A DNA stretch of 8,729 nucleotides, from the IMG/VR virus record IMGVR_UViG_2645727555_000021; one strand, 5' to 3'. A model generated the notes under the pieces. That model searched no databases and was not told where the DNA came from. It worked only from the letters and a program-made list of their open reading frames with translations. Numbering within the stretch: the first letter of the stretch is position 1; every line of letters starts with the position of its first letter. Both the position numbers and the translations under genes were made by a program. The DNA is from a virus (taxonomy: Duplodnaviria > Heunggongvirae > Uroviricota > Caudoviricetes). This document shows, piece by piece, positions 1 through 8,729 of the stretch.

Positions 1-118
1 CCATATAACCACCTGAAAGACAATGACATTGCCTGTTTTTATAACGGTAATTGCAGACCATGACAAGCCGCAGCCGTCAGGCTGCCTACTCGAATGTTTG
101 CCATTATTTTCTCCTGAA

Positions 119-144
119 CGCCCCTTATTCAGGGGCGTGTTTTT
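119..144 (+). terminator. Rho-independent terminator (plus-strand orientation)
   Basis: Seen in sequence: 8-bp GC-rich stem ACGCCCCT (119-126) / AGGGGCGT (131-138), loop TATT, followed by GTTTTT (139-144). Only frame 1 is open from the window start to a TGA at 61-63, so a plus-strand gene may end just upstream; 21 codons is too little to call it. Confidence 0.5.
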
Positions 145-251
145 GCCTTACTTCTGCTTTGTTTTTTTCTGTGCCTTTGAAGTGTTCGCGGCGATAGTTT
201 CACCTTCATCTACGTCAAGTGACGTTGGTGATACCGACACGTTCGCCACCA

Positions 252-1949
252 TCACTTTTTTTCGTTAACCTTGCCTGTCAGCATGTCGATAGCACCTTCT
301 TTGGCACGAGTCAGACGCAGGCGGGTGAAGTAGTTTTCACCGTTGCGAGGATGTACTTCGTTGATGGCACTGCCCCAGAGAGTGGTACGGTTAACGAGAG
401 ACGGATTGGTTTCGTGCACGTAAGGGATTGCTGGGACTGCATCACCAGCAATCAGACCGGCTTTACCGATGCCTTCGCCACGCCCATAGAAGAAGATGTC
501 ATCCAGCCCGAAGTCATATCCCTGTGCCTGGAATTGCTCACAGACAGGTTGCGGCACTTCGTAAATACGAATCGTGCCAAACAGGGTGCCGATGTACTGT
601 ACATACGGCGACTGAACGTAACCTGGTGCGATCTGGAAGTGCTGTGGAGGCAGAGAGCGCAGGAAGTTCGCGGCGTCACCACCAGCAAAGCCGCCACGAA
701 TACCCGTTGTCAGGGTACGATTTGCCATTTCTTGAGACAGAGCGTTTACTACGTGACGCAGGAGGCCGACCCAGGACTCATAGTTTTGAGCTTCCGGCAG
801 AGCCACATCAAATTCACGACCATAAACGGTATGGAATACCAGGGTGCGCAGACGCATGATGTCGGTTTCATGGGAGATCCAGTTACGCATCGCGGAGAAC
901 TGAAGTGCCGCTAATTCAAGGCCGTGCTCACGGCTTAAATCGGATGCGGACATTACCGTGTGTTCGGAAGCAATTACGTACTGGGACGGACGAACTTCGT
1001 ACTTACGCATAGCCTGGTTGATCACCGGAATCAGGCTTGGATTGCGCTCGATGTTAATTTCGACCTGAACAGCAATTTCAGTACCTTCTGGCGGAGCCTG
1101 GGTAAATGTAATGTCAATGACACCAGTGTCATAGGCAACTTTGGCAGTCGCTGAGAAAGCATTACCTTTGCTGTCTTTAGCATTGAAATAAAGGTTGCCA
1201 TCGCCGTCGTCAACTTTGGACGGTTTGCGGTTGATCAGCAGTTTGTTATAACCAGCGCGAAGCGGGCAGGATTGTCCCTCAAAATTTTTGATGTCGAACT
1301 GGAAGGTTTTGGTGCTGCCATCCCCTTTAGTGGAAAGGGTATACAGGCGCTTCATTTGAGAATAAACACCAGCTGACTGCATATTCAGTTCGTCACCTTG
1401 TTTGAAGGTGCCGAATTTTGTGCCTGCTACGTTGACCAGTTCATAAATATTTGACTCGTCACGATCACAAGGAACAAAAGTACAGGCATCACTGGTAGCA
1501 GCGCCCAGAGAGGCAGGCAGAATTAGAGCAGCATATTGAGCAACTTTCATTACGCCGTCAGAGCTACGCATTGATTGCGCGACAGACTCAAACATTGCCT
1601 TACCCGTGCCTTCATGGGTATCACTGGCACATTCAGTCATCAGGCGTTCAAGAGCCATGTGTGCGTTCGCCAGGATGTCACTTGCCGGGTAATGACCATG
1701 TTGACGTTTATACTCATGCAGAGACATAGCCCACCCACCAGTGATCTGACGAGCGACCTCTGGATTTACGCCTTCAAACATAGGCACTTTCTGGATTGCT
1801 TTATCCAGGTTTTCCATCATTACTGCCTGGTCAGCAATCATGTTGCCTGCTGCATCGGTGGTCGGATCGACGGTCATAGCCATGACGCTTGCCGCCCGAT
1901 TCATAATCTCGCGCTCGCGATCACGAGCTGGCTGAATGTTTTTATTCAC
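252..1949 (-). CDS. Hypothetical 565-aa protein, function unknown (possibly a virion structural protein; speculative)
   Basis: Long uninterrupted ORF with a GTG start at 1949 (translation begins NKNIQPA), with AGGG about 9 nt upstream. No Walker A, no transmembrane segment, no recognisable catalytic motif by eye. The antisense ORFs 219..914 and 428..859 have low-complexity, Arg/His/Cys-rich translations and are treated as shadows. Confidence 0.75.
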   Translation of the reverse strand: MNKNIQPARDREREIMNRAASVMAMTVDPTTDAAGNMIADQAVMMENLDKAIQKVPMFEGVNPEVARQITGGWAMSLHEYKRQHGHYPASDILANAHMALERLMTECASDTHEGTGKAMFESVAQSMRSSDGVMKVAQYAALILPASLGAATSDACTFVPCDRDESNIYELVNVAGTKFGTFKQGDELNMQSAGVYSQMKRLYTLSTKGDGSTKTFQFDIKNFEGQSCPLRAGYNKLLINRKPSKVDDGDGNLYFNAKDSKGNAFSATAKVAYDTGVIDITFTQAPPEGTEIAVQVEINIERNPSLIPVINQAMRKYEVRPSQYVIASEHTVMSASDLSREHGLELAALQFSAMRNWISHETDIMRLRTLVFHTVYGREFDVALPEAQNYESWVGLLRHVVNALSQEMANRTLTTGIRGGFAGGDAANFLRSLPPQHFQIAPGYVQSPYVQYIGTLFGTIRIYEVPQPVCEQFQAQGYDFGLDDIFFYGRGEGIGKAGLIAGDAVPAIPYVHETNPSLVNRTTLWGSAINEVHPRNGENYFTRLRLTRAKEGAIDMLTGKVNEKK

Positions 1950-2107
1950 GGTTAAGCCCTAAATTCGGGCGCGGCGTGAAGGTTCTTTTGACGGGCTAAC
2001 AATACCTACTTTGTGATTTAGTCAATAGGTTTAGTAAAATAAAATCTATTAACACACATGTTGTTATGTGATTTAATTTTAGTTTTCTAACACAAATCAT
2101 TAGAGTT
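1950..2107. promoter_or_regulatory. AT-rich divergent intergenic region; presumed promoters for the 565-aa gene (leftward) and the 2108-2975 cassette (rightward)
   Basis: 158-bp AT-rich spacer between two divergently oriented coding regions. No -35/-10 pair could be assigned confidently. Confidence 0.3.
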
Positions 2108-2500
2108 ATGGCGTATCGAATCTTTGTTTCGTATAAAAATGGCGCTAAGAGCCACTCTCTGAACACAACAAGTCGCTTTCTTGTTGAGGCGCAGTTGGCA
2201 TCAATTCTTGCCGAAAGTGAGATACTCTCGCTCGCTGAACGGATCGTTATCCAGTTTTCTGGTAGAGATATACTCAATGTCCCCGCCCTCACCCCGGCAT
2301 CCGAAGTTATGGAATCAATTAAATGGCCTGTATGCGGATGTCCTGCCAGGGTTGAAGAGCCGGTAACTGCAACGCTCTACATGCCGAAAGCTGTAAGAGA
2401 TTGGCTTGCTATGGTTGGCAATGGGAAAGTCAGTGCTGGACTTCGCAAGTTAATTGAAATGGCAGATATTCCTGAGTTAAAAAATGCATGGCGACAATGA
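2108..2500 (+). CDS. Hypothetical 130-aa protein with a C-terminal ribbon-helix-helix-like segment (putative DNA-binding regulator or antitoxin-like)
   Basis: ATG at 2108 with only a weak SD (GAG). The C-terminus TATLYMPKAVRDWLAMVGNGKVSAGLRKLIEMA fits a strand / helix / G-x-S turn / helix RHH pattern. The stop at 2498-2500 is 16 nt before the next gene start, suggesting an operon. The start codon is uncertain. Confidence 0.5.
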   Translation: MAYRIFVSYKNGAKSHSLNTTSRFLVEAQLASILAESEILSLAERIVIQFSGRDILNVPALTPASEVMESIKWPVCGCPARVEEPVTATLYMPKAVRDWLAMVGNGKVSAGLRKLIEMADIPELKNAWRQ

Positions 2501-2516
2501 GTAAACAAGGGACAAA

Positions 2517-2975
2517 ATGAGTCACGTTAACCCATCAAAAACACAATATCGCTTAATGCTGGCGATCGCGTCAGCTATACCAACCAGCCTGAATCCCCCG
2601 GCAGGCTATCCCGCTGTTGTTGATGATTGTTTTCAGTATTACGGAGAAGACATCCTGAGCCAGTCCAAAGCGCTCAAGCAGTTATGTAAGGCAGGTATTC
2701 TTCACTGTATCGGAGATCCGGACGATTTTGTTGTTATGCTGGCGGATCGTGACTCTTTTCTACTGTCCTGGAAAGCCGGTGCGCGCGAAGCACGTTTGGG
2801 GAATGGTATTGGTTACATAGACTATAGTGATTGTCCGCTGGCATTTGCTGGTGGATATATGCATTGGCATGAGCGAAATAGAGGCCGTCAGCGTCAGTAT
2901 CGCTTGAGTGACTTTAACGTCTGTCACGGTTTCGAAGAAGCTGACAGCCAGGACATCTGGCTTCAGGAGCCTTGA
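2517..2975 (+). CDS. Hypothetical 152-aa protein, function unknown
   Basis: ATG at 2517 preceded by AAGGGA 5 nt upstream. Soluble, with no transmembrane segment and no recognised motif; Cys/His-containing (CHG, HWHE). Its 3' end overlaps the convergent lipoprotein gene by 13 bp. Confidence 0.65.
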   Translation: MSHVNPSKTQYRLMLAIASAIPTSLNPPAGYPAVVDDCFQYYGEDILSQSKALKQLCKAGILHCIGDPDDFVVMLADRDSFLLSWKAGAREARLGNGIGYIDYSDCPLAFAGGYMHWHERNRGRQRQYRLSDFNVCHGFEEADSQDIWLQEP

Positions 2976-3295
2976 TCCCCCTTCCCTTCCCAAATCTCCC
3001 TGTTTCTTTGGTTATTCAGTGCGTTTCGTTGGTTGCATTCGTCGATCGTGCTGAATAACTGTTCAGCGTATGTCGGATACTTGTTTAACAGCACTGGCGT
3101 GTCCTCTGGCACTAAACAAGGGGAGTAATCAATCAGATTTGCCTGCGGCTTGCTGGTGGCTTCTACGGTAATTTTCACTGGCACGCTGGTTGATGGCTTT
3201 TGCCCGTTCCCGCTGCATCCTGATAACGTCATCAGGCACACGCACATCGTTAATCCCAGCACGGCGTAACGCATTTTCAAGGCGAGTGATTTCAT
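2963..3295 (-). CDS. Outer-membrane lipoprotein, o-spanin (Rz1)-like
   Basis: N-terminus MKSLALKMRYAVLGLTMCVCLMTLSGC is a lipoprotein signal peptide with lipobox LSGC; the mature part is Pro/Ser/Thr-rich with extra Cys. GAGAGGAAAG lies immediately upstream of the ATG at 3295. The gene starts inside the 3' end of the upstream Rz-like gene in a different frame (overlap 3129-3295), matching the overlapped spanin architecture known for P2 lysB/lysC. Confidence 0.5.
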   Translation of the reverse strand: MKSLALKMRYAVLGLTMCVCLMTLSGCSGNGQKPSTSVPVKITVEATSKPQANLIDYSPCLVPEDTPVLLNKYPTYAEQLFSTIDECNQRNALNNQRNREIWEGKGDQGS

Positions 3296-3587
3296 TCTGG
3301 CTTTCCTCTCGTTGTTTGATTAGGTTGGCATTCAGTTCTGCTGTTTTGCGCTGGTACTCCTTTTCCAGTGCTTTAATTCTTTCGTTTTCGGTCAGCATGG
3401 CTGAGCGAGCGTTCTCACTTAACTGTAATGCGGTAGAAAGCGTGTTGTTCGTGCTTTCCAGTTGTGATTTTGAGTCTTCAAGCGATCGGACATACCTGAT
3501 GTGTTCGATAACTGCCGTCGTTGTTCGGTAAATTCCAGAAATGGCTAAAAGCGCAATTACAATCAAAATTATCTTTTTCAAAACCAT
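3129..3587 (-). CDS. Bitopic inner-membrane coiled-coil protein, i-spanin (Rz)-like
   Basis: The ORF is open to 3602, but the ATG at 3585-3587 (MVLKKIILIVIALLAISG...) is directly preceded by GGAGAGG, whereas the ATG at 3602 has no SD. One N-terminal transmembrane helix, then a long charged coiled-coil-like region (EKEYQRKTAELNANLIKQREESQNEITRLENALRRAG). Its C-terminal region overlaps the lipoprotein gene. Confidence 0.55.
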   Translation of the reverse strand: MVLKKIILIVIALLAISGIYRTTTAVIEHIRYVRSLEDSKSQLESTNNTLSTALQLSENARSAMLTENERIKALEKEYQRKTAELNANLIKQREESQNEITRLENALRRAGINDVRVPDDVIRMQRERAKAINQRASENYRRSHQQAAGKSD

Positions 3588-3658
3588 CCTCTCCAGGTTC
3601 ATTTTTTGGTGTTAAACATGTACCAATTTACATCCTTTTGTGTGCCTAAGTGGTGCTT

Positions 3659-4465
3659 CTATGATTCCTTTTTGGTGTTCTTTTGGAGCGCATCGATAAC
3701 GCCTTGTGGCATGATTAAACTGATTGCCGGACTCATTACTGCATCATCCAGTAGAGAACCAGTTAACGTGATGGCGACAGCGTTCTCTAAACCTTTGGTT
3801 GCCTGAGTGGTTGACGTTTTAATGCGACCTGTAAGGGCTACGACACCCTCACTTGCTGAGTTAATTTCGGAGAGTAAAACTTCGGCGGCTGTCACTGCTT
3901 CCCGTAAAGCATCAATTTCATCCTGAGTAATGACTGGAGCCTGAGCGCCCCCAGCACCACCCTGTCCACCATTGCTTTCACCACCACCAGCACTTCCGGC
4001 AGCTTCAATTTTTGCGTTAATGGCGTTCATGGCGGTTTTCAGAGCATCAAGTTTTAGCGCCGTCAATGCGTCCGTTAGAGATTGCGGAATGGAAACATTC
4101 CCCATTCCCTCAACAAGGGCGAAAGCAGGTATGGGGGTCAGCTCGTTACCTTTTGCGTAGCATTCCCAGCCAATCTTCATCTGTAACAACTCTGATGGCT
4201 TGGTGTATGGGGAAAGAGAATCAGCCAGTAATGAAGACGCTTTGCTGGCCTCATTGAGCTGTTCAGAAAAGCCAAGCAATTGAGTAGTCCAGGCCGAAAC
4301 AGAATCAGGATAGGTTTTATCGGCGTGAACTATTCCCTGTATGGCGCTGGCGAGCGATGAGGCTTTTACAGAAGCTGCCCGGCTTATGGTTATAGATTCT
4401 GGTGTAGAGATACCGGCATCTGACAGAATTTTGAAGGCTTTAACTTCACCTATTGAATCAAGCAT
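3659..4465 (-). CDS. Hypothetical 268-aa Ala/Ser/Gly-rich soluble protein, translationally coupled to the PAAR-like gene
   Basis: The ORF extends upstream to 4564, but its in-frame ATG at 4463-4465 overlaps the PAAR stop (TAATG on the coding strand); the first 33 codons of the longer ORF are shadow of the PAAR gene. Contains a low-complexity linker AAGSAGGGESNGGQGGAGGAQAP between helical Ala-rich halves. No transmembrane segment and no catalytic motif seen. Confidence 0.65.
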   Translation of the reverse strand: MLDSIGEVKAFKILSDAGISTPESITISRAASVKASSLASAIQGIVHADKTYPDSVSAWTTQLLGFSEQLNEASKASSLLADSLSPYTKPSELLQMKIGWECYAKGNELTPIPAFALVEGMGNVSIPQSLTDALTALKLDALKTAMNAINAKIEAAGSAGGGESNGGQGGAGGAQAPVITQDEIDALREAVTAAEVLLSEINSASEGVVALTGRIKTSTTQATKGLENAVAITLTGSLLDDAVMSPAISLIMPQGVIDALQKNTKKES

Positions 4466-4749
4466 TATGCAACCTGAAAAATATCCTCGCCGTTGGCGAT
4501 AACAGAACCACAAGAAAGCGGATCGCCTACACAGACAACTCCCTTTCCACCTATCGAAAACCATACTCGCGTCGATACAGCTGCCCCTGGATGTGCACTG
4601 TTACCGTCAGTGTGACTGGGAAACATGGCACCATCTACAACAACTGGCTTACCGTTAACGGTGAACCAGGGAACGGTTTCTGCTACCAGTCGCGGCGGAA
4701 ATCCTCCGTGACCAGAACAAAGGGTGTCGCTGGTGGCTATTGCGCTCAT
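4465..4749 (-). CDS. PAAR-repeat-like protein (94 aa)
   Basis: ATG at 4747-4749 with AGGAGG 6 nt upstream. Translation shows three repeats of the PAAR type: LCSGHGG, WFTVNGKPVVVDGA and VWFSIGGKGVVCVGD. Size and repeat pattern match PAAR spike-tip proteins of T6SS and T4 gp5.4; assignment is by eye, not alignment. Confidence 0.6.
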   Translation of the reverse strand: MSAIATSDTLCSGHGGFPPRLVAETVPWFTVNGKPVVVDGAMFPSHTDGNSAHPGAAVSTRVWFSIGGKGVVCVGDPLSCGSVIANGEDIFQVA

Positions 4750-4834
4750 TCTTCACCTCCTGGTTATCCTCCTATTGTCATCACTTTGTTATTTCGTCAT
4801 TCAAACGGAGAGTTAAATTTCGGAATATTTTTGT

Positions 4835-4990
4835 ATTCTCAATTCATTCTCAAATAAATCTCACTATCAGACCATCATTCAGTGAGTGATTAAGATATTC
4901 TCAAAATAAACTCAACAAGCGCTCTTTTTTATCTCGTTTGGTGTGGATTTTTGGGTGCTTCTCTTTTAAAATTACATTTTAATTCTCAAA
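4835..4990. repeat. parC-like centromere/operator iterons upstream of parM
   Basis: Four exact copies of ATTCTCAA at 4835-4842, 4846-4853, 4897-4904 and 4982-4989. Degenerate copies sit 11 bp after the second and third (AAATCTCA at 4857, AAACTCAA at 4908), giving two phased runs of three with 11-bp spacing, as in R1 parC. The array lies in the divergent region between the PAAR-operon start and parM. Confidence 0.45.
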
Positions 4991-5015
4991 TGTGTCTCAG
5001 AAGTGGAGCAAGAAG

Positions 5016-5972
5016 ATGCGCATTTTTATCGATGATGGTTCAACCAATATCAAAATGCTGTGGGAGCACGACGGGGAAACTCGCACTCACATCAGCCCTA
5101 ACAGCTTTAAGCGCGGATGGTCAGCAACATTTGGTGCGGGCAAGCCGTTTAACTATGTCATTGACGACGAAAAGTATTCATACGACTTGATATCGCCAGA
5201 TGTTCTGCCGACGAATAATGTGGAATGGCAATACAGCCCGCTTAACGTCCTGGCTGTTCACCATGCCCTGCTGACAAGTGGCATTGAGCCGCAGGAAGTA
5301 GAAATTGTGGTCACGCTGCCTCTGGCGGAGTTTTACGACGACGACGCGCAATACAATCTCGATAACATCGAGCGCAAGAAAGCCAGTCTTATGCGCCCCG
5401 TCACGCTGAATAAAGGCAATGTGTTCACGATTAAGAAAGTTACGGTACGACCGGAGTCTATTCCGGCAGGAATTGGCCTGTGCGACAATCTGAACCCTGC
5501 CCATTCTGTTCTTATCGTCGATTTGGGTGGAACTACCCTTGATGTTTCAATGGTCGCCGGGCAAATGACGGCAGTTTCCCGTGTTTTTGGCGATTCGAAT
5601 CTTGGTGTATCACTGGTCACCAGGGAAGTAAGGCAAGCACTTGCAAGGGCCAATACCGAAACGTCAAATTACAATGTTGATCAGCTCATTATTAACCGCC
5701 ACGATGAAGATTATCTGAACGACAATATCAATGACCCATCAGCGATTGGTGATGTGAAAAAGGCCATTGCCGCAAGCATTGACCGTCTGCGTACCCGCGT
5801 TCTTGATGTGATTGGCGACTTTAAAGGATATACGCATGTCATGGTGATCGGTGGTGGCGCACCGCTGGTGGCAGATGCAATTCGCGAGCAAGTTAATATT
5901 CGTGATGACCGTTTCTTCGTGGCGGATGACCCGCAACTTGCTCTTGTTCATGGCCTGAAAGCAATCGGTTAA
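5016..5972 (+). CDS. parM: Type II partition actin-like ATPase ParM (StbA)
   Basis: The N-terminus MRIFIDDGSTNIKMLWEHDGETRTHISPNSFKRGW closely follows the R1 ParM N-terminus (MLVFIDDGSTNIK...HISPNSFKREW) as I recall it, and the motif NVLAVHHALLTSG is also shared. GGAG lies 7 nt before the ATG at 5016; the tracked ORF start at 4992 is a GTG extension without an SD. 318 aa. Confidence 0.9.
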   Translation: MRIFIDDGSTNIKMLWEHDGETRTHISPNSFKRGWSATFGAGKPFNYVIDDEKYSYDLISPDVLPTNNVEWQYSPLNVLAVHHALLTSGIEPQEVEIVVTLPLAEFYDDDAQYNLDNIERKKASLMRPVTLNKGNVFTIKKVTVRPESIPAGIGLCDNLNPAHSVLIVDLGGTTLDVSMVAGQMTAVSRVFGDSNLGVSLVTREVRQALARANTETSNYNVDQLIINRHDEDYLNDNINDPSAIGDVKKAIAASIDRLRTRVLDVIGDFKGYTHVMVIGGGAPLVADAIREQVNIRDDRFFVADDPQLALVHGLKAIG

Positions 5973-5979
5973 CGAGGTA

Positions 5980-6324
5980 ATGTCCATGTCTCAGGAACGT
6001 AAGAAAGTGATGATTTATCTTCGCCCAGAGGCTTATGCCAATGAAAAGGCGGCGAGCGAGAAGATAAAAAAACATAGCGATATGGCAAGAACCGCATTGT
6101 TGGCAGGGCTTGCGCTGGGAGAAGTCGATAGCAGGCTTCCAGGATTACTGGCTTCCCTGCTGACCGAAGACAATAACCCGGAGCTGATCCGAAAAATGCT
6201 GGCATCCTTCCTGGAACTACCAGCTGCGGTTGAGGAGCGCCCTGCCTCCATTGAGCCAGTGAAGGAGCAAGTTGTTGCCAAAAGCGCGTCGGCGCGCAAT
6301 CTGGCTGACTCTCTACCTGATTGA
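5980..6324 (+). CDS. parR: Type II partition adaptor ParR (StbB)-like DNA-binding protein
   Basis: It lies 8 nt after the parM stop, is of ParR size, and the segment ARTALLAGLALGE resembles RAALTAGLALY of R1 ParR from memory. The start may be the ATG at 5986 rather than 5980, because GAGG at 5974-5977 is better spaced for it. Confidence 0.75.
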   Translation: MSMSQERKKVMIYLRPEAYANEKAASEKIKKHSDMARTALLAGLALGEVDSRLPGLLASLLTEDNNPELIRKMLASFLELPAAVEERPASIEPVKEQVVAKSASARNLADSLPD

Positions 6325-6342
6325 CAGAAAATGTGCTGGTTT

Positions 6343-6367
6343 AAGGCTGCAAATTGCAGCCTTTTTT
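6343..6367 (+). terminator. Rho-independent terminator of the parMR operon
   Basis: Perfect 9-bp stem AAGGCTGCA (6343-6351) / TGCAGCCTT (6355-6363) with a 3-nt loop, running into a T-run that ends at 6367; it lies 19 nt after the parR stop. Confidence 0.7.
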
Positions 6368-6395
6368 ATGCCTTAATGGTGTCTAATTGGTGTTA

Positions 6396-6578
6396 ATCTG
6401 GAACCAGTTAGGTGCTGTTATGATGCAATTTTGTATCTGGTTCCAATTTGGGGCTGATTTCGTGTTAAATAGGATGCAATATAAGGTGTATTTGGTCTGA
6501 TTGATGTTATACTTTGCCAAACATTCATGACTCCATTATAGAGCCTGTCCCGCATCAAGAAGGCTCTTATCTGGAACC
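6396..6578. repeat. Repeated ATCTGG(A/T)(A/T)CC motifs upstream of parA; candidate partition site or operator
   Basis: ATCTGGAACC at 6396-6405 and 6569-6578, and ATCTGGTTCC at 6435-6444. Also ATGCAAT at 6423-6429 and 6474-6480, and AATGGTGT / AATTGGTGT at 6375-6390. The last copy sits in the leader between the putative promoter and the parA RBS. Confidence 0.4.
6505..6513 (+). promoter_or_regulatory. Putative extended -10 promoter for the parA operon
   Basis: TGtTATACT at 6505-6513 matches the extended -10 form TGnTATAAT. No good -35 is present. It lies about 100 nt upstream of the parA ATG. Prediction by eye only. Confidence 0.3.
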
Positions 6579-6611
6579 GTTTTGATACCAAAATCACACC
6601 GAGGAACGGAT

Positions 6612-7253
6612 ATGATTATATTGGTAGTCAGCCAAAAAGGTGGCTGTGGAAAATCAACCACAAGCGTAAACATCTGTGCGGAGCTTGCCCGCGCAAATAA
6701 GGATGTAGTGTTACTAGATGCAGACAAGCAAGGAACAGCTGCCCGCTGGGCAGCTGACCGTAACACGGCAGAGGTTTCTCCTGTTATTCATTGTGTCCAG
6801 AAGTTTGGTAATATTCGAGAAACACTTCTCGATCTGGATAAGCGTTATGAATTTGTTGTTGTTGATACAGCCGGGCGCGATAGCAAAGAGATGCGTACAG
6901 GCATAACCGCTGCAGATATTGTGTTGGTCCCATTCAGACCATCTCAACCAGATTTAGACACGCTGGCACACTTTGTTGAAGTGTTTGAAGAGGCTTTGGA
7001 CCTGATGCCTAATCCTAGCATTAAGGCGTTCGCAGTCTTAACAATGGCCCCATCCAATCCGGTTGTGAATGAAACCAATGAGGCCAAAGAGTACCTGGCT
7101 GAATATCCGCAACTGAAGTTGCTGAAAACCATCATTCGTGATCGTAAGGTTTACCGTGATTGCATGGCTGAAGGGAAGGGCGTTGTTGAGATGGACAACG
7201 GGAAAGCTAAAGGTGAAATCCAGATGTTGGTTAAGGAGTTATTAAGTGATTAA
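6612..7253 (+). CDS. parA: Type Ib partition ATPase, small ParA/ParF-like (213 aa)
   Basis: The N-terminus MIILVVSQKGGCGKSTT is the deviant Walker A (KGGxGKT/S) of ParA/MinD ATPases. The C-terminus (RKVYRDCMAEGKGVVEMDNGKAKGEIQMLVKELL) resembles ParF of TP228 from memory. GAGGAA lies 5 nt before the ATG at 6612; the tracked TTG start at 6582 is an unsupported extension. Confidence 0.85.
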   Translation: MIILVVSQKGGCGKSTTSVNICAELARANKDVVLLDADKQGTAARWAADRNTAEVSPVIHCVQKFGNIRETLLDLDKRYEFVVVDTAGRDSKEMRTGITAADIVLVPFRPSQPDLDTLAHFVEVFEEALDLMPNPSIKAFAVLTMAPSNPVVNETNEAKEYLAEYPQLKLLKTIIRDRKVYRDCMAEGKGVVEMDNGKAKGEIQMLVKELLSD

Positions 7254-7533
7254 GCCTCGTAAATCGGTAAAAGCCCCCGAAGTAAAAGACCCCGATCTTG
7301 AACGCCGAATTGAGGATTTTGCAAGTAAGGCTGATTTGGTGCCGGGTGAGCAACCAGAAGACAACAAAGTGCTCGATAAGGACGCTCCACGTGATTTTAA
7401 ATCTATTCGTGTTGGTTTCAATGAATACGAGTACCAGGTACTTGATGCGTTAAGTAAAAAGCATAATCGCAGCAAATTGAATATGATCCGCCATGCTATC
7501 CTCATGTTAGCGGAGTCTGAAGAAGCAAAATAA
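7246..7533 (+). CDS. ParG-like ribbon-helix-helix centromere-binding partner (95 aa)
   Basis: GTG start at 7246 with AAGGAG at 7233-7238, overlapping the parA stop by 8 nt. The C-terminus SIRVGFNEYEYQVLDALSKKHNRSKLNMIRHAILMLAE fits an RHH fold, and the N-terminus is charged and likely disordered, as in ParG. The only in-frame ATG is at codon 80. Confidence 0.6.
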   Translation: MIKPRKSVKAPEVKDPDLERRIEDFASKADLVPGEQPEDNKVLDKDAPRDFKSIRVGFNEYEYQVLDALSKKHNRSKLNMIRHAILMLAESEEAK

Positions 7534-7640
7534 AGTCTTTCAGGTTGGTTTTAGAACTTAAAAAGTCTTGAACCAAAGGTGCACCAATACACCACTAATT
7601 TGGTGTACCTTTACATCCTTTTTGGTTCCACTTGTGTACC
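7532..7640. repeat. Cluster of short repeats and a palindrome between parG-like and the glnS upstream region
   Basis: AAAGTCTT at 7532-7539 and 7562-7569; palindrome GGTGCACC at 7578-7585; GGTGTACC at 7602-7609 and TGTGTACC at 7633-7640; TGGTTCCA at 7623-7630, which echoes the ATCTGG(A/T)(A/T)CC motif upstream of parA. Confidence 0.3.
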
Positions 7641-7801
7641 ATTTTTCATTAATTTACTTATGCGCAAAAGTGGGCTTCATGAAAAAGCTCATTATTGAAA
7701 TAACGATAGAAAGCAATTTCTAATCAACTAGTGGTTGTCAGCCTATTCGGCTTATAAGATCATACGCTGTTATACGTTGTTTACGCTTTGAGGAATCCAC
7801 A

Positions 7802-8729
7802 ATGAGTGAGGCAGAAGCCCGCCCGACTAACTTTATTCGTCAGATCATCGATGAAGATCTGGCCAGTGGTAAGCACACCACAGTACATACCCGTTTCCCG
7901 CCGGAACCGAATGGCTATCTGCATATTGGTCATGCGAAATCTATCTGCCTGAACTTCGGGATCGCCCAGGACTATAAAGGCCAGTGCAACCTGCGTTTCG
8001 ACGACACTAACCCGGTAAAAGAAGATATCGAGTACGTCGAGTCGATTAAAAACGACGTTGAATGGTTAGGTTTTCACTGGTCTGGCAACATCCGTTACTC
8101 CTCCGATTATTTTGACAAACTCCATGCCTATGCTGTTGAACTGATCAACAAAGGACTGGCGTATGTTGACGAACTGACGCCGGAACAGATCCGCGAATAC
8201 CGCGGCACCCTGACGCAGCCGGGTAAAAACAGCCCGTACCGCGACCGCAGCGTTGAAGAGAACCTGGCGCTGTTCGAAAAAATGCGTGCCGGTGGTTTTG
8301 AAGAAGGTAAAGCCTGCCTGCGTGCGAAAATCGACATGGCTTCGCCGTTTATCGTGATGCGCGACCCGGTGCTGTACCGTATTAAGTTTGCTGAACACCA
8401 CCAGACTGGCAACAAGTGGTGCATCTACCCGATGTACGACTTCACCCACTGCATCAGCGATGCGCTGGAAGGTATTACGCACTCTCTGTGTACGCTTGAG
8501 TTCCAGGACAACCGTCGTCTGTATGACTGGGTACTGGACAACATCACCATTCCTGTTCATCCGCGCCAGTACGAATTCTCGCGCCTGAATCTGGAATACA
8601 CCGTGATGTCCAAGCGTAAGCTGAACCAGCTGGTAACCGACAAGCACGTTGAAGGCTGGGATGACCCGCGTATGCCGACCATTTCCGGTCTGCGTCGTCG
8701 TGGTTACACTGCTGCTTCTATTCGTGAGT
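7802..8729 (+). CDS. glnS: Glutaminyl-tRNA synthetase, N-terminal 309 codons (3' partial, continues beyond the window)
   Basis: The translation [53 protein letters not shown]... carries the class I HIGH motif (HIGH) and VMSKR (KMSK motif) and matches E. coli GlnRS from memory, with a few substitutions. GAGG lies about 8 nt before the ATG. The ORF track missed it because it runs off the window; the antisense ORFs 8066..8647 and 8128..8424 are shadows. Confidence 0.96.

Follow-up and report, generated by a model that had tools for sequence, protein, structure and literature searches.

Tandem type II and type Ib partition loci beside a host-derived glnS copy in a D6-type phage-plasmid backbone

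The stretch of DNA analysed here, referred to as the window and 8,729 nucleotides in length, carries on its plus strand, head to tail, a type II parMRC locus and a type Ib locus, and after them the first part of a glnS gene (Table 1). An earlier sequence-only reading had described two complete par loci, one type II and one type Ib, in this orientation, and all four genes are indeed present in that order. Each locus is accompanied by repeats with centromere-like features, and these repeats are real. Their periodicity was measured by autocorrelation against shuffled sequences, which gave z values of 3.4–3.9 across the three arrays of the window, and an 11-bp period was found in all arrays and all alleles examined. 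A loose regular-expression count of heptamers across the window was uninformative, and a consensus promoter scan returned no more sites than shuffled sequences did, the promoters named below being weak matches to consensus.

Table 1. Features of the window, with positions counted from its first nucleotide.
Feature	Coordinates	Strand	Remarks
Foreign repeated sequence, probably a mobile-element end	1..86		Outside the par region; breaks into orf49, the Ig-like structural gene of D6
Candidate parC centromere/operator	4830..4999	+	About 7 iterons of 11 bp with (A/T)TCTCA core
parM (D6 orf58, StbA type), actin-like segregation ATPase, 318 aa	5016..5972	+	Pfam, R1 ParM, PHROG
parR (D6 orf59, StbB type), centromere-binding adaptor, 112–114 aa	5980..6324	+	D6 ATG at 5986
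Intrinsic terminator between the two par operons	6343..6371	+	9-bp stem AAGGCTGCA/TGCAGCCTT, then T-run
Upstream centromere/operator-like array, type Ib	6374..6515	+	About 12 11-bp units; degenerate TGGTGYY core
parA (D6 orf60), small type Ib ParA/ParF-like Walker ATPase, 213 aa	6612..7253	+	Pfam, ParF
Predicted type Ib centromere-binding protein (D6 orf61), 95 aa	7246..7533	+	Fold and remote homologues
Downstream repeat array, candidate second centromere site	7540..7645		TGGTGYACC / GGTTCC motifs in both orientations, 11-bp period
Left part of the 1.74-kb E. coli-chromosome-like glnS cassette	7714..8729	+	Continues past the window; RBS and glnS codons 1–309, CDS from 7802

The product of the first gene is matched by the Pfam models for StbA_N (1.8e-69) and the ParM C-terminal domain (3.5e-55), by the PHROG 691 partition protein (3e-76), and over its full length by the R1 ParM structures (E 1e-111, residues 1–318 against 1–319). 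The sequence-only reading had opened the par region at position 4992. The genes are real, but the candidate parC begins earlier, at about 4830, and the start of parM is likely ATG 5016 rather than GTG 4992, given that residue 1 of R1 ParM pairs with MRIFIDDGSTNIK in the alignment. In the candidate parC, the iterons are laid out in groups of 3+2+2 at 4832–4864, 4894–4915, and 4979–4999, with a conserved AT-rich promoter-like stretch ahead of the last pair. A lag of 11 is the top autocorrelation lag in this segment (z 3.9 versus shuffles), and two diverged relatives, L006 and L007, share this layout; ParR would presumably bind these iterons. The parR gene starts 8 nt past the parM stop and encodes a protein matching Pfam Plasmid_stab_B (3.5e-11), the StbB/ParR protein of pB171 (2JD3, E 1e-6), and PHROG 8671 (1.7e-60). 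The terminator that follows it is kept in all relatives read.

The type Ib locus begins with an array for which a lag of 11 is again on top (z 3.7) and a lag of 22 second. This array leads into an extended −10-like TGTTATACT at 6505–6513, and extra copies of ATCTGGAACC lie at 6396, 6435 (there as ATCTGGTTCC), and 6569. The divergent parA/RHH alleles of four relatives (L005, L006, L007, and L014) each have an 11-bp array of their own at the corresponding position (z 3.8–5.1), and the array is a candidate protein-binding site. ParA has a deviant Walker A motif, KGGCGKST, and is without an N-terminal DNA-binding domain. Its start is most likely ATG 6612, since a GAGGAA Shine-Dalgarno sequence precedes it and it is also the start annotated in D6. 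The protein matches the Pfam families AAA_31, CbiA, and MipZ, and over its full length (residues 3–211) TP228 ParF (4DZZ/5U1G, E 1e-18); the NCBIfam ParA_partition model scores it at 162.6 bits, below the cut-off of 180, and it is thus not an equivalog-level member of that family. Downstream of the operon, the second array contains an inverted repeat, AAAGGTGCACCAA/TTGGTGTACCTTT, and the direct repeat GTGTACC(T/A)TT, with lag 11 as its top lag (z 3.4). The type Ib arrays on both sides of the operon change along with the parA/RHH allele in relatives.

The gene whose first 8 nt lie within the end of parA corresponds to orf61, which is labeled hypothetical in the D6 annotation, where orf60 is merely a 'possible ParA'. 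Taken alone, the orf61 protein gave no usable match in Pfam, NCBIfam, or a phmmer search of the PDB. Ten close members of the family had no Pfam match even at E 10, a profile built from these ten sequences was likewise fruitless, and none of the curated ParG/ParB family models match the protein. A PHROG Arc-like repressor, however, matches residues 53–94 (1.8e-4), and an exhaustive search recovered 123 remote homologues of similar size. Among 85 that were aligned, Pfam recognized a NikA-like ribbon-helix-helix (RHH) domain in 29 and RHH_1 in 24; ParG (PF09274) was absent from the families matched by these 85 relatives. The orf61 profile found CopG as its best PDB match (E 0.15, spanning the RHH) and had no PDB sequence match to ParG 1P94. 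An AlphaFold model from a shallow alignment reached a pLDDT of only 59.5 and its Foldseek matches were meaningless, so a deeper alignment was used, from which residues 50–90 were modeled at a pLDDT of 94–98. Foldseek matched this model to CopA_SO, CopG, Arc, and ParG 1P94, with an rmsd of 1.2–2 Å for CopA_SO and CopG; the resemblance to ParG is at the level of the fold only. The protein is laid out as a conserved N-terminal MxKxR tail, a helix at 16–29, a flexible linker, and a C-terminal RHH at about 52–92. In addition, four remote homologues (P0016, P0025, P0040, and P0091) are each encoded directly downstream of a gene for a protein of 209–212 aa, which bears ParA Pfam domains in three of the four. 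Together, the modeled fold, the homologues, and the gene neighborhood allow orf61 and its relatives to be newly named as the predicted RHH centromere-binding partner of the type Ib ParA.

The replicon status described here is that of relatives, the window itself covering only 8.7 kb. Escherichia phage D6 (MF356679 / NC_050154) is a 91-kb circular P1-like phage-plasmid whose orf58–orf62 have their counterparts in the window, and D6 52212–60852 is collinear with window positions 87–8729, gene for gene, at 99.0% nucleotide identity across 8.6 kb. Plasmid pRHB04-C06_3 is 99.9% identical to these positions, and about 100 plasmids, each of about 90 kb, also match positions 87–8729 at 99%. The D6 annotation has capsid, upfB/upfC, and PAAR genes to the left of the par genes, and the D6 gene order is reproduced in the window as capsid, upfB/upfC, parM, parR, parA, orf61, and glnS. 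D6-like plasmid prophages such as pYU39_89 have gene content and order in common with the window, which differs from D6 by a few substitutions (e.g., GlnRS L276Q) and by 86 nt of foreign sequence at the site of the Ig-like gene of D6. D6 and all D6-like plasmids align to the window only from base 87 onward, and copies of bases 1–86, up to 100% identical, occur 461 times across 291 plasmids of E. coli/Shigella. Around one copy of this 86-nt end, PLSDB annotates nothing except a Tn3-family transposase at a distance of about 470 nt.

Between the par loci and glnS, the sequence-only reading had counted 268 nt, which holds exactly (orf61 stop at 7533, glnS ATG at 7802), and had placed an element boundary within 7534–7740. 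The junction alignment against the nagE–glnS region that it proposed does show homology shifting at about 7714, which is 87 nt ahead of the glnS start; this shift marks a glnS cassette within the phage-plasmid rather than the boundary of the element. When 7300–8729 was used as query, chromosomal matches started at query positions 415–435 (95.3–95.9% identity), and in all but one of 5,426 complete E. coli genomes the chromosomal glnS match starts only at the breakpoint. In D6, homology to K-12 runs from −87 through to 13 nt before the glnS stop (codon ~550) at 96.8% nucleotide identity. A promoter-like TTGTCA-17-GATCAT, a weak consensus match, lies at 7735–7763, upstream of the gene.

The sequence-only reading had called glnS chromosomal and had offered, besides an assembly mis-join, the options that a plasmid or phage-plasmid was integrated next to this housekeeping gene or that a chromosomal island had captured the par loci. 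The DNA from about 7714 is indeed 95–97% identical to the E. coli nagE–glnS region, but this chromosome-like segment is just 1.74 kb long and ends near the glnS stop, after which dmt (a phage methylase), rdgC/hrdC, and baseplate genes follow in D6, with phage genes next in related plasmids also. Moreover, nagE and its terminator are missing upstream of the glnS copy. The par region itself was found in 101 of the 5,426 complete genomes, in all 101 on plasmids (relatives of about 90 kb, circular) and in none on a chromosome. The D6 gene context, the limits of K-12 homology, and the 0/5,426 chromosomal placements refute chromosomal integration, which retains a negligible probability. A second explanation would be an assembly chimera in which plasmid and chromosome contigs were joined at a repeat. 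Nothing favors such an artifact beyond the shift at about 7714, although bases 1–86 do place a foreign repeat against D6 DNA at the opposite end of the window. The finished D6 genome has the identical par–glnS junction, and so do more than 100 closed circular plasmids, about 90 kb in size, which were assembled independently in unrelated studies and drawn from E. coli, Salmonella, and Shigella hosts; a misassembly is accordingly extremely improbable. The sequence-only reading had itself allowed that a plasmid-borne glnS would remove the integration interpretation, and the same junction places glnS on a plasmid. Thus, with a probability of roughly 0.9, the window is D6-type phage-plasmid backbone carrying tandem type II and type Ib par loci and an inserted, host-derived glnS.

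The alignments identify this glnS as a plasmid-borne copy of host origin, not the chromosomal gene, and the sequence points to its being kept functional by selection. Its reading frame proved correct, its product matches Pfam tRNA-synt_1c (1e-122), its HIGH and VMSK motifs are intact, and glnS dN/dS is 0.034. Within the 309 codons of the window, GlnRS differs from that of K-12 at 4 positions, and the full-length D6 enzyme differs by 5 substitutions and an altered C-terminal end. Five D6 relatives (L007, L014, L015, L018, and L019) have the same four par genes and no glnS; in these, the RHH gene is followed by a 137-nt array and terminator, then directly by dmt. These newly noted relatives amount, by their gene order, to an apparent empty site and define the glnS cassette as an insertion. 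The array at the downstream position in these relatives differs from that of the window and has an 11-bp period of its own (z 4.6). The capture of glnS came with a different downstream centromere-like array, and the gain of cargo may have remodeled a partition site. glnS has already been described as a moron in D6-like genomes (PMC6799933).

The sequence-only reading had called a tandem arrangement next to glnS unusual, a claim that weakens on comparison: a type II system combined with a type I RHH system has been counted on 971 PLSDB plasmids (PMC13245405), and the tandem order is invariant in 8/8 D6-type elements in which gene order was read. Both loci are intact in all eight, and the repeat arrays of each were confirmed in the six elements whose intergenic DNA was read. 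The four par genes are also intact in six diverged elements and are under strong purifying selection (dN/dS 0.01–0.23 overall, 0.01–0.05 for parM, and 0.03–0.05 for parA), with synonymous divergence saturated. In L005, parMR is 99% identical and parA–RHH 76%, and L014 has the reverse pattern, which indicates that the alleles of the two loci shuffle independently and that the loci diverge separately.

It could be argued that partitioning of the element depends on one locus alone. The second locus would then be redundant or host-specific, or it would be retained mainly for incompatibility with related phage-plasmids, for their exclusion, or for transcriptional regulation. Of the par systems on the dual-par plasmid SCP1, parABS1 is the only one that matters in the laboratory (PMC13245405), and the independent exchange of D6 alleles is the pattern expected under diversifying pressure on specificity or incompatibility. 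Against this stand the retention of both loci with their arrays across D6-type elements and the strong purifying selection that persists on each of the four genes although synonymous divergence is saturated, and this alternative is considered unlikely. Also more doubtful than not, and offered tentatively, is the idea that the two loci form a combinatorial specificity system, in which each locus, its proteins together with its repeat arrays, is swapped independently by recombination and incompatibility types arise. If this were true, related phage-plasmids could co-reside or displace each other. The independent shuffling of alleles could interest those who study phage-plasmid incompatibility. 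No paper describing combinatorial par specificity or glnS-linked remodeling of arrays was found.

From these features, the following mode of action can be proposed. A D6-type phage is temperate, its prophage is a low-copy circular plasmid, and the backbone carries two independent segregation machines in tandem. In the first, ParR would bind the 11-bp CTCA iterons of parC, where it would repress the parMR promoter and cap filaments of ATP-bound ParM, which would push sister plasmids apart. In the second, which lies beyond a strong terminator, the orf61 RHH dimer would recognize TGGTGYY heptamers that recur once per helical turn in two arrays, one ahead of the operon and over its promoter, the other behind it. 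The small ParA ATPase, bound to the nucleoid, would be stimulated by the N-terminal tail of the orf61 protein; plasmids would therefore be spaced over the nucleoid. The 1.74-kb glnS cassette, with a putative promoter of its own, is an insertion that separates the type Ib locus from the convergent phage methylase gene. We infer the DNA binding, the autoregulation, the contribution of each locus to stability, and the role of glnS.

Since D6-type phage-plasmids have a glnS of their own, a housekeeping-looking gene beside plasmid genes does not here point to integration, and this corrects the earlier interpretation. The stretch is ordinary, having previously been sequenced in D6-type elements, and represents an extension of known biology rather than a new kind of system. 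What is new is confined to small details, namely the RHH assignment of orf61, the 11-bp period of the arrays, and the glnS-less relatives. The annotation gains a named RHH partner, the positions of the likely centromere arrays, and a defined insertion.

Comparable cases are known for each part of this arrangement. Plasmid copies of aminoacyl-tRNA synthetase genes, such as cysS on a Salmonella ST313 plasmid, likewise provide a second copy of an essential host-type synthetase on a plasmid that is stably maintained, and they have been proposed to serve fitness or maintenance (PMC6799933). The D6 case differs in that some D6 relatives are without glnS; any such function of the D6 copy is a putative one. 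The type II locus resembles R1 parMRC in the full-length homology of ParM, in upstream 11-bp iterons that bracket a promoter-like region, and in a small downstream parR. The R1 iterons are arranged 5+5, unlike the 3+2+2 layout of about 7 iterons in the D6-type parC, and the D6-type ParR is nearer to the StbB type of pB171. The ParM of D6 scores 376 bits against R1 ParM in the PDB search and 261 bits against the pB171-type ParM in a pairwise alignment, two values obtained by different methods. The type Ib locus resembles parFGH of TP228, whose ParF is the best solved homologue of the window ParA, and the orf61 protein has the architecture of ParG, a flexible N-terminal tail and a C-terminal RHH, with ParG 1P94 among its fold matches. 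In contrast to TP228, the orf61 sequence does not match ParG, the repeat motif and spacing differ, and the window has an additional downstream array.

The closest parallel in the pairing of systems is pB171, in which the same two kinds stand side by side (par1, type II, and par2, type Ib); the comparison was read from a pB171-type plasmid, CP012495.1, located through the ParR sequence of 2JD3. Identity to the pB171-type proteins is 43% for ParM, 32% for ParR, and 43% for ParA, whereas the RHH proteins of the two types are not alignable outside the fold, and hhalign of the orf61 profile with the pB171-type ParB gave no significant match. The loci of CP012495.1 are transcribed divergently from a shared intergenic region, whereas those of the window are in tandem on the plus strand with the terminator between them, and the array period is 7 bp in the pB171 type and 11 bp in the D6 type. 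Common to both is a par2-like layout of a small ParA, an RHH protein of about 91–95 aa, and arrays on both sides of the operon, with the downstream array of the window positioned like parC2 of pB171 par2.

In its par-glnS arrangement, the window corresponds to the backbone already known from D6-type phage-plasmids. Positions 87 to 8729 of the window share 99.0% identity with Escherichia phage D6 (91,159 bp, circular) and 99.9% with plasmid pRHB04-C06_3. About 100 non-mobilizable plasmids of roughly 90 kb, carried by E. coli, Salmonella, and Shigella, match at 98-99%. In the D6 record, orf58 and orf59 are StbA-type and StbB-type, orf60 is a "possible ParA", orf61 has a hypothetical label, and orf62 is glutaminyl-tRNA synthetase; beyond it lie two genes for DNA methylases, then hrdC/rdgC and genes for the baseplate. 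Thus, glnS is flanked by phage-plasmid DNA on both sides. The identity and composition proposed here, D6-type phage-plasmid par loci with glnS as cargo, are given a probability of about 0.9. Bases 1-86 are foreign to D6, which, like all relatives, carries an Ig-like structural gene (orf49) there. This 86-nt end has 461 matching places in 291 E. coli/Shigella plasmids, with up to 100% identity, and looks like a mobile-element end inserted into orf49 of the window's source.

As the sequence-only reading stated, a type II locus (parM, parR) and a type Ib locus (parA and a 95-aa gene, D6 orf61) lie in tandem on the same strand, and 268 nt separate the 95-aa gene from glnS; the ORFs and protein families required only small coordinate corrections. 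Read from its ATG, parM encodes MRIFIDDGSTNIK, and this aligns to residue 1 of R1 ParM. The minus-strand genes upstream of the par region look like phage genes and include those for a capsid-like protein of 565 aa and a PAAR protein. The PAAR match (Pfam, 4.5e-6) is barely above the cut-off, and its gene overlaps that of a 301-aa Gly/Ala-rich protein. These two genes are homologues of P1 upfC and upfB located directly upstream of the par region, and "alanine racemase" is a wrong annotation of the PAAR gene in one plasmid record. Two further overlapping ORFs, annotated as hypothetical in D6, look like an overlapped i-spanin/o-spanin pair, with the first encoding a protein of 157 aa that is hydrophobic near its N terminus and has a long charged segment, and the second containing a lipobox (LSGC) and a weak match to the T7 o-spanin (E 0.01).

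Features of the window and of related loci lacking glnS
Feature	Position	Strand	Description or source
Overlapping ORF pair (D6 orf54 and orf55)	2963-3295; 3129-3602	-	
301-aa Gly/Ala-rich protein	3659-4564	-	
PAAR-motif protein	4465-4749	-	
Candidate array upstream of parM	4830-4999		~7 units of 11 bp, TCTCA core
ParM-like ORF, 318 aa	ATG 5016; longest ORF from GTG 4992	+	ORF list, translations
parR ORF, 112-114 aa	5980-6324	+	ORF list, translations
Strong hairpin and T-run	6343-6371	+	sequence
Candidate array upstream of parA	6374-6515		~12 units of 11 bp, degenerate TGGTGYY core
ParA-like ORF, 213 aa	6612-7253	+	ORF list, translations
95-aa ORF, overlapping parA	7246-7533	+	ORF list, translations
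Candidate array downstream of 95-aa (RHH) gene	7540-7645		TGGTGYACC/GGTTCC motifs, both orientations
glnS	from 7802, past window end	+	ORF list, translations
Downstream array and terminator, glnS-less relatives	L007 3450-3586; L015 4202-4338; L014 4192-4326		counterpart of window 7534-7713

ParM matches Pfam StbA_N (1.8e-69), the ParM C-terminal domain, and R1 ParM structures over its full length (E 1e-111), while ParR matches Pfam Plasmid_stab_B and the pB171 StbB/ParR structure 2JD3 (E 1e-6). ParA contains a deviant Walker A motif, and among solved structures it is closest to TP228 ParF/ParA (4DZZ, 5U1G; E 1e-18, whole length); its NCBIfam ParA_partition score of 162.6 bits is below the 180-bit cut-off. 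The 95-aa protein, singly or as a shallow profile, had no sequence match in Pfam, NCBIfam, or the PDB, and the sole early hint was a PHROG "Arc-like repressor" match (1.8e-4) over residues 53-94. An exhaustive profile search recovered 123 small relatives, and the aligned relatives matched the NikA-like ribbon-helix-helix (RHH) family in 29 of 85 cases and RHH_1 in 24 of 85. The orf61-family profile also aligned to CopG across the RHH (E 0.15). Built from a deep alignment, an AlphaFold model has high confidence for residues 50-90, and its top structural matches are RHH proteins only (CopA_SO, CopG, Arc, and ParG 1P94), with an rmsd of 1.2-2 Å to CopA_SO and CopG. In addition, four remote relatives each lie directly 3′ of a gene for 209-212 aa, three of which encode ParA Pfam domains; the contig of a fifth is too short to show the neighboring gene. 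On the basis of these matches, the model, and the gene pairing, orf61 is the predicted RHH centromere-binding partner of the type Ib ParA. It resembles ParG in architecture, yet falls outside the ParG sequence family.

The strongest autocorrelation is at lag 11 in all three candidate centromere-like arrays of the window (z 3.4-3.9 versus shuffles), and the corresponding arrays of diverged relatives likewise peak at lag 11 (z 3.8-5.1). The array upstream of parA leads into TGTTATACT, which resembles an extended -10 element. Where the parA/RHH allele of a relative has diverged, its arrays occupy the same positions with different sequences, which is what co-evolving sites for putative protein binding would look like. 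Downstream of the RHH gene, relatives without glnS contain different 11-bp repeats and a bidirectional terminator, so the glnS-bearing lineage differs by this array as well as by the added gene.

The sequence-only reading placed the par loci beside a chromosomal glnS, as an integrated element or an assembly chimera. Among 5,426 complete E. coli genomes, the par region (5016-7713) is present in 101, as one copy each, and in no chromosomal place; an ordinary chromosomal glnS was found in all but one of those genomes. The reading of this glnS as chromosomal is refuted, as are integration beside it and a chimera. Chromosomal glnS copies match the window only from ~7714 onward (95.3-95.9% identity among the matches listed), and alignment with the nagE-glnS region shows that the chromosome-like stretch begins right past the nagE terminator position and includes the promoter-like TTGTCA-17-GATCAT. 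In D6, this stretch begins 87 nt ahead of the ATG and ends 13 nt short of the stop codon (1,740 nt; 96.8% identity to K-12). Five D6 relatives without glnS (L007, L014, L015, L018, and L019) keep all four par genes, with the RHH gene separated from a methylase gene by just a short array and terminator, which span 137 nt in L007 and L015; L007 and L015 are without D6 positions 15444-17415 of locus L001. The breakpoint expected within 7534-7740 therefore exists, but with reversed polarity: the absence of chromosomal par places, the cassette limits, and the glnS-less relatives show that glnS entered the plasmid. These relatives also show that glnS, which has been called a moron of D6-like genomes (PMC6799933), is not universal in the wider D6 group. 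At the methylase position, L014 (from E. marmotae) encodes a single 762-aa Dam-family methylase (4327-6615) versus two methylase genes in D6, and other relatives contain a truncated methylase pseudogene; the DNA to the right of the par loci thus varies.

The encoded GlnRS has few residue differences from K-12, with HIGH and VMSK intact, and glnS has a dN/dS of 0.034 and a dS of 0.115 relative to K-12. Codon 276 (window 8627-8629), a few residues past VMSK, encodes Gln in the window and pRHB04-C06_3 and Leu in D6 and K-12, which is probably a neutral polymorphism.

All four par genes are intact in six elements, up to saturated synonymous divergence (dN/dS 0.01-0.23). Compared with the window, L005 is 99% identical in parMR, 76% in parA, and 75% in the RHH gene, whereas L014 has the opposite pattern (parM 80%, parR 64%, parA 92%, RHH 95%). 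These identities indicate that the two loci diverge independently, with whole par modules apparently exchanged by recombination. Such exchange among D6-type plasmids (L005, L006, L007, and L014) suggests distinct partition or incompatibility types. In the proposed mechanism, ParMRC would push the low-copy plasmid prophage by filament growth and, together with it, ParA/RHH would provide nucleoid-based positioning, while the adjacent glnS would be a selectively maintained, host-derived cargo gene with its own promoter. Confidence in these individual biochemical steps is lower than in identity and composition. The additions to existing records are modest, namely the RHH assignment of orf61, the likely centromere location and periodicity, the empty-site relatives without glnS, and the observation that the two par loci shuffle independently.

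The double par locus of pB171 is described as divergent. A pB171-type locus, found by way of the 2JD3 ParR sequence, has the divergent order parR<-parM, parA->parB (CopG-family). Its proteins are 43% (ParM), 32% (ParR), and 43% (ParA) identical to those of the D6 type, its RHH protein is not alignable by sequence with the D6-type RHH protein, and the arrays flanking parAB have a 7-bp period versus 11 bp in the window. The tandem arrangement had been considered unusual; the combination of type I RHH and type II systems is common, occurring on 971 PLSDB plasmids in a 2026 survey in which 19% of plasmids having any system had multiple (PMC13245405). The divergent order of the pB171-type locus makes the tandem order of D6-type loci a real difference from pB171.
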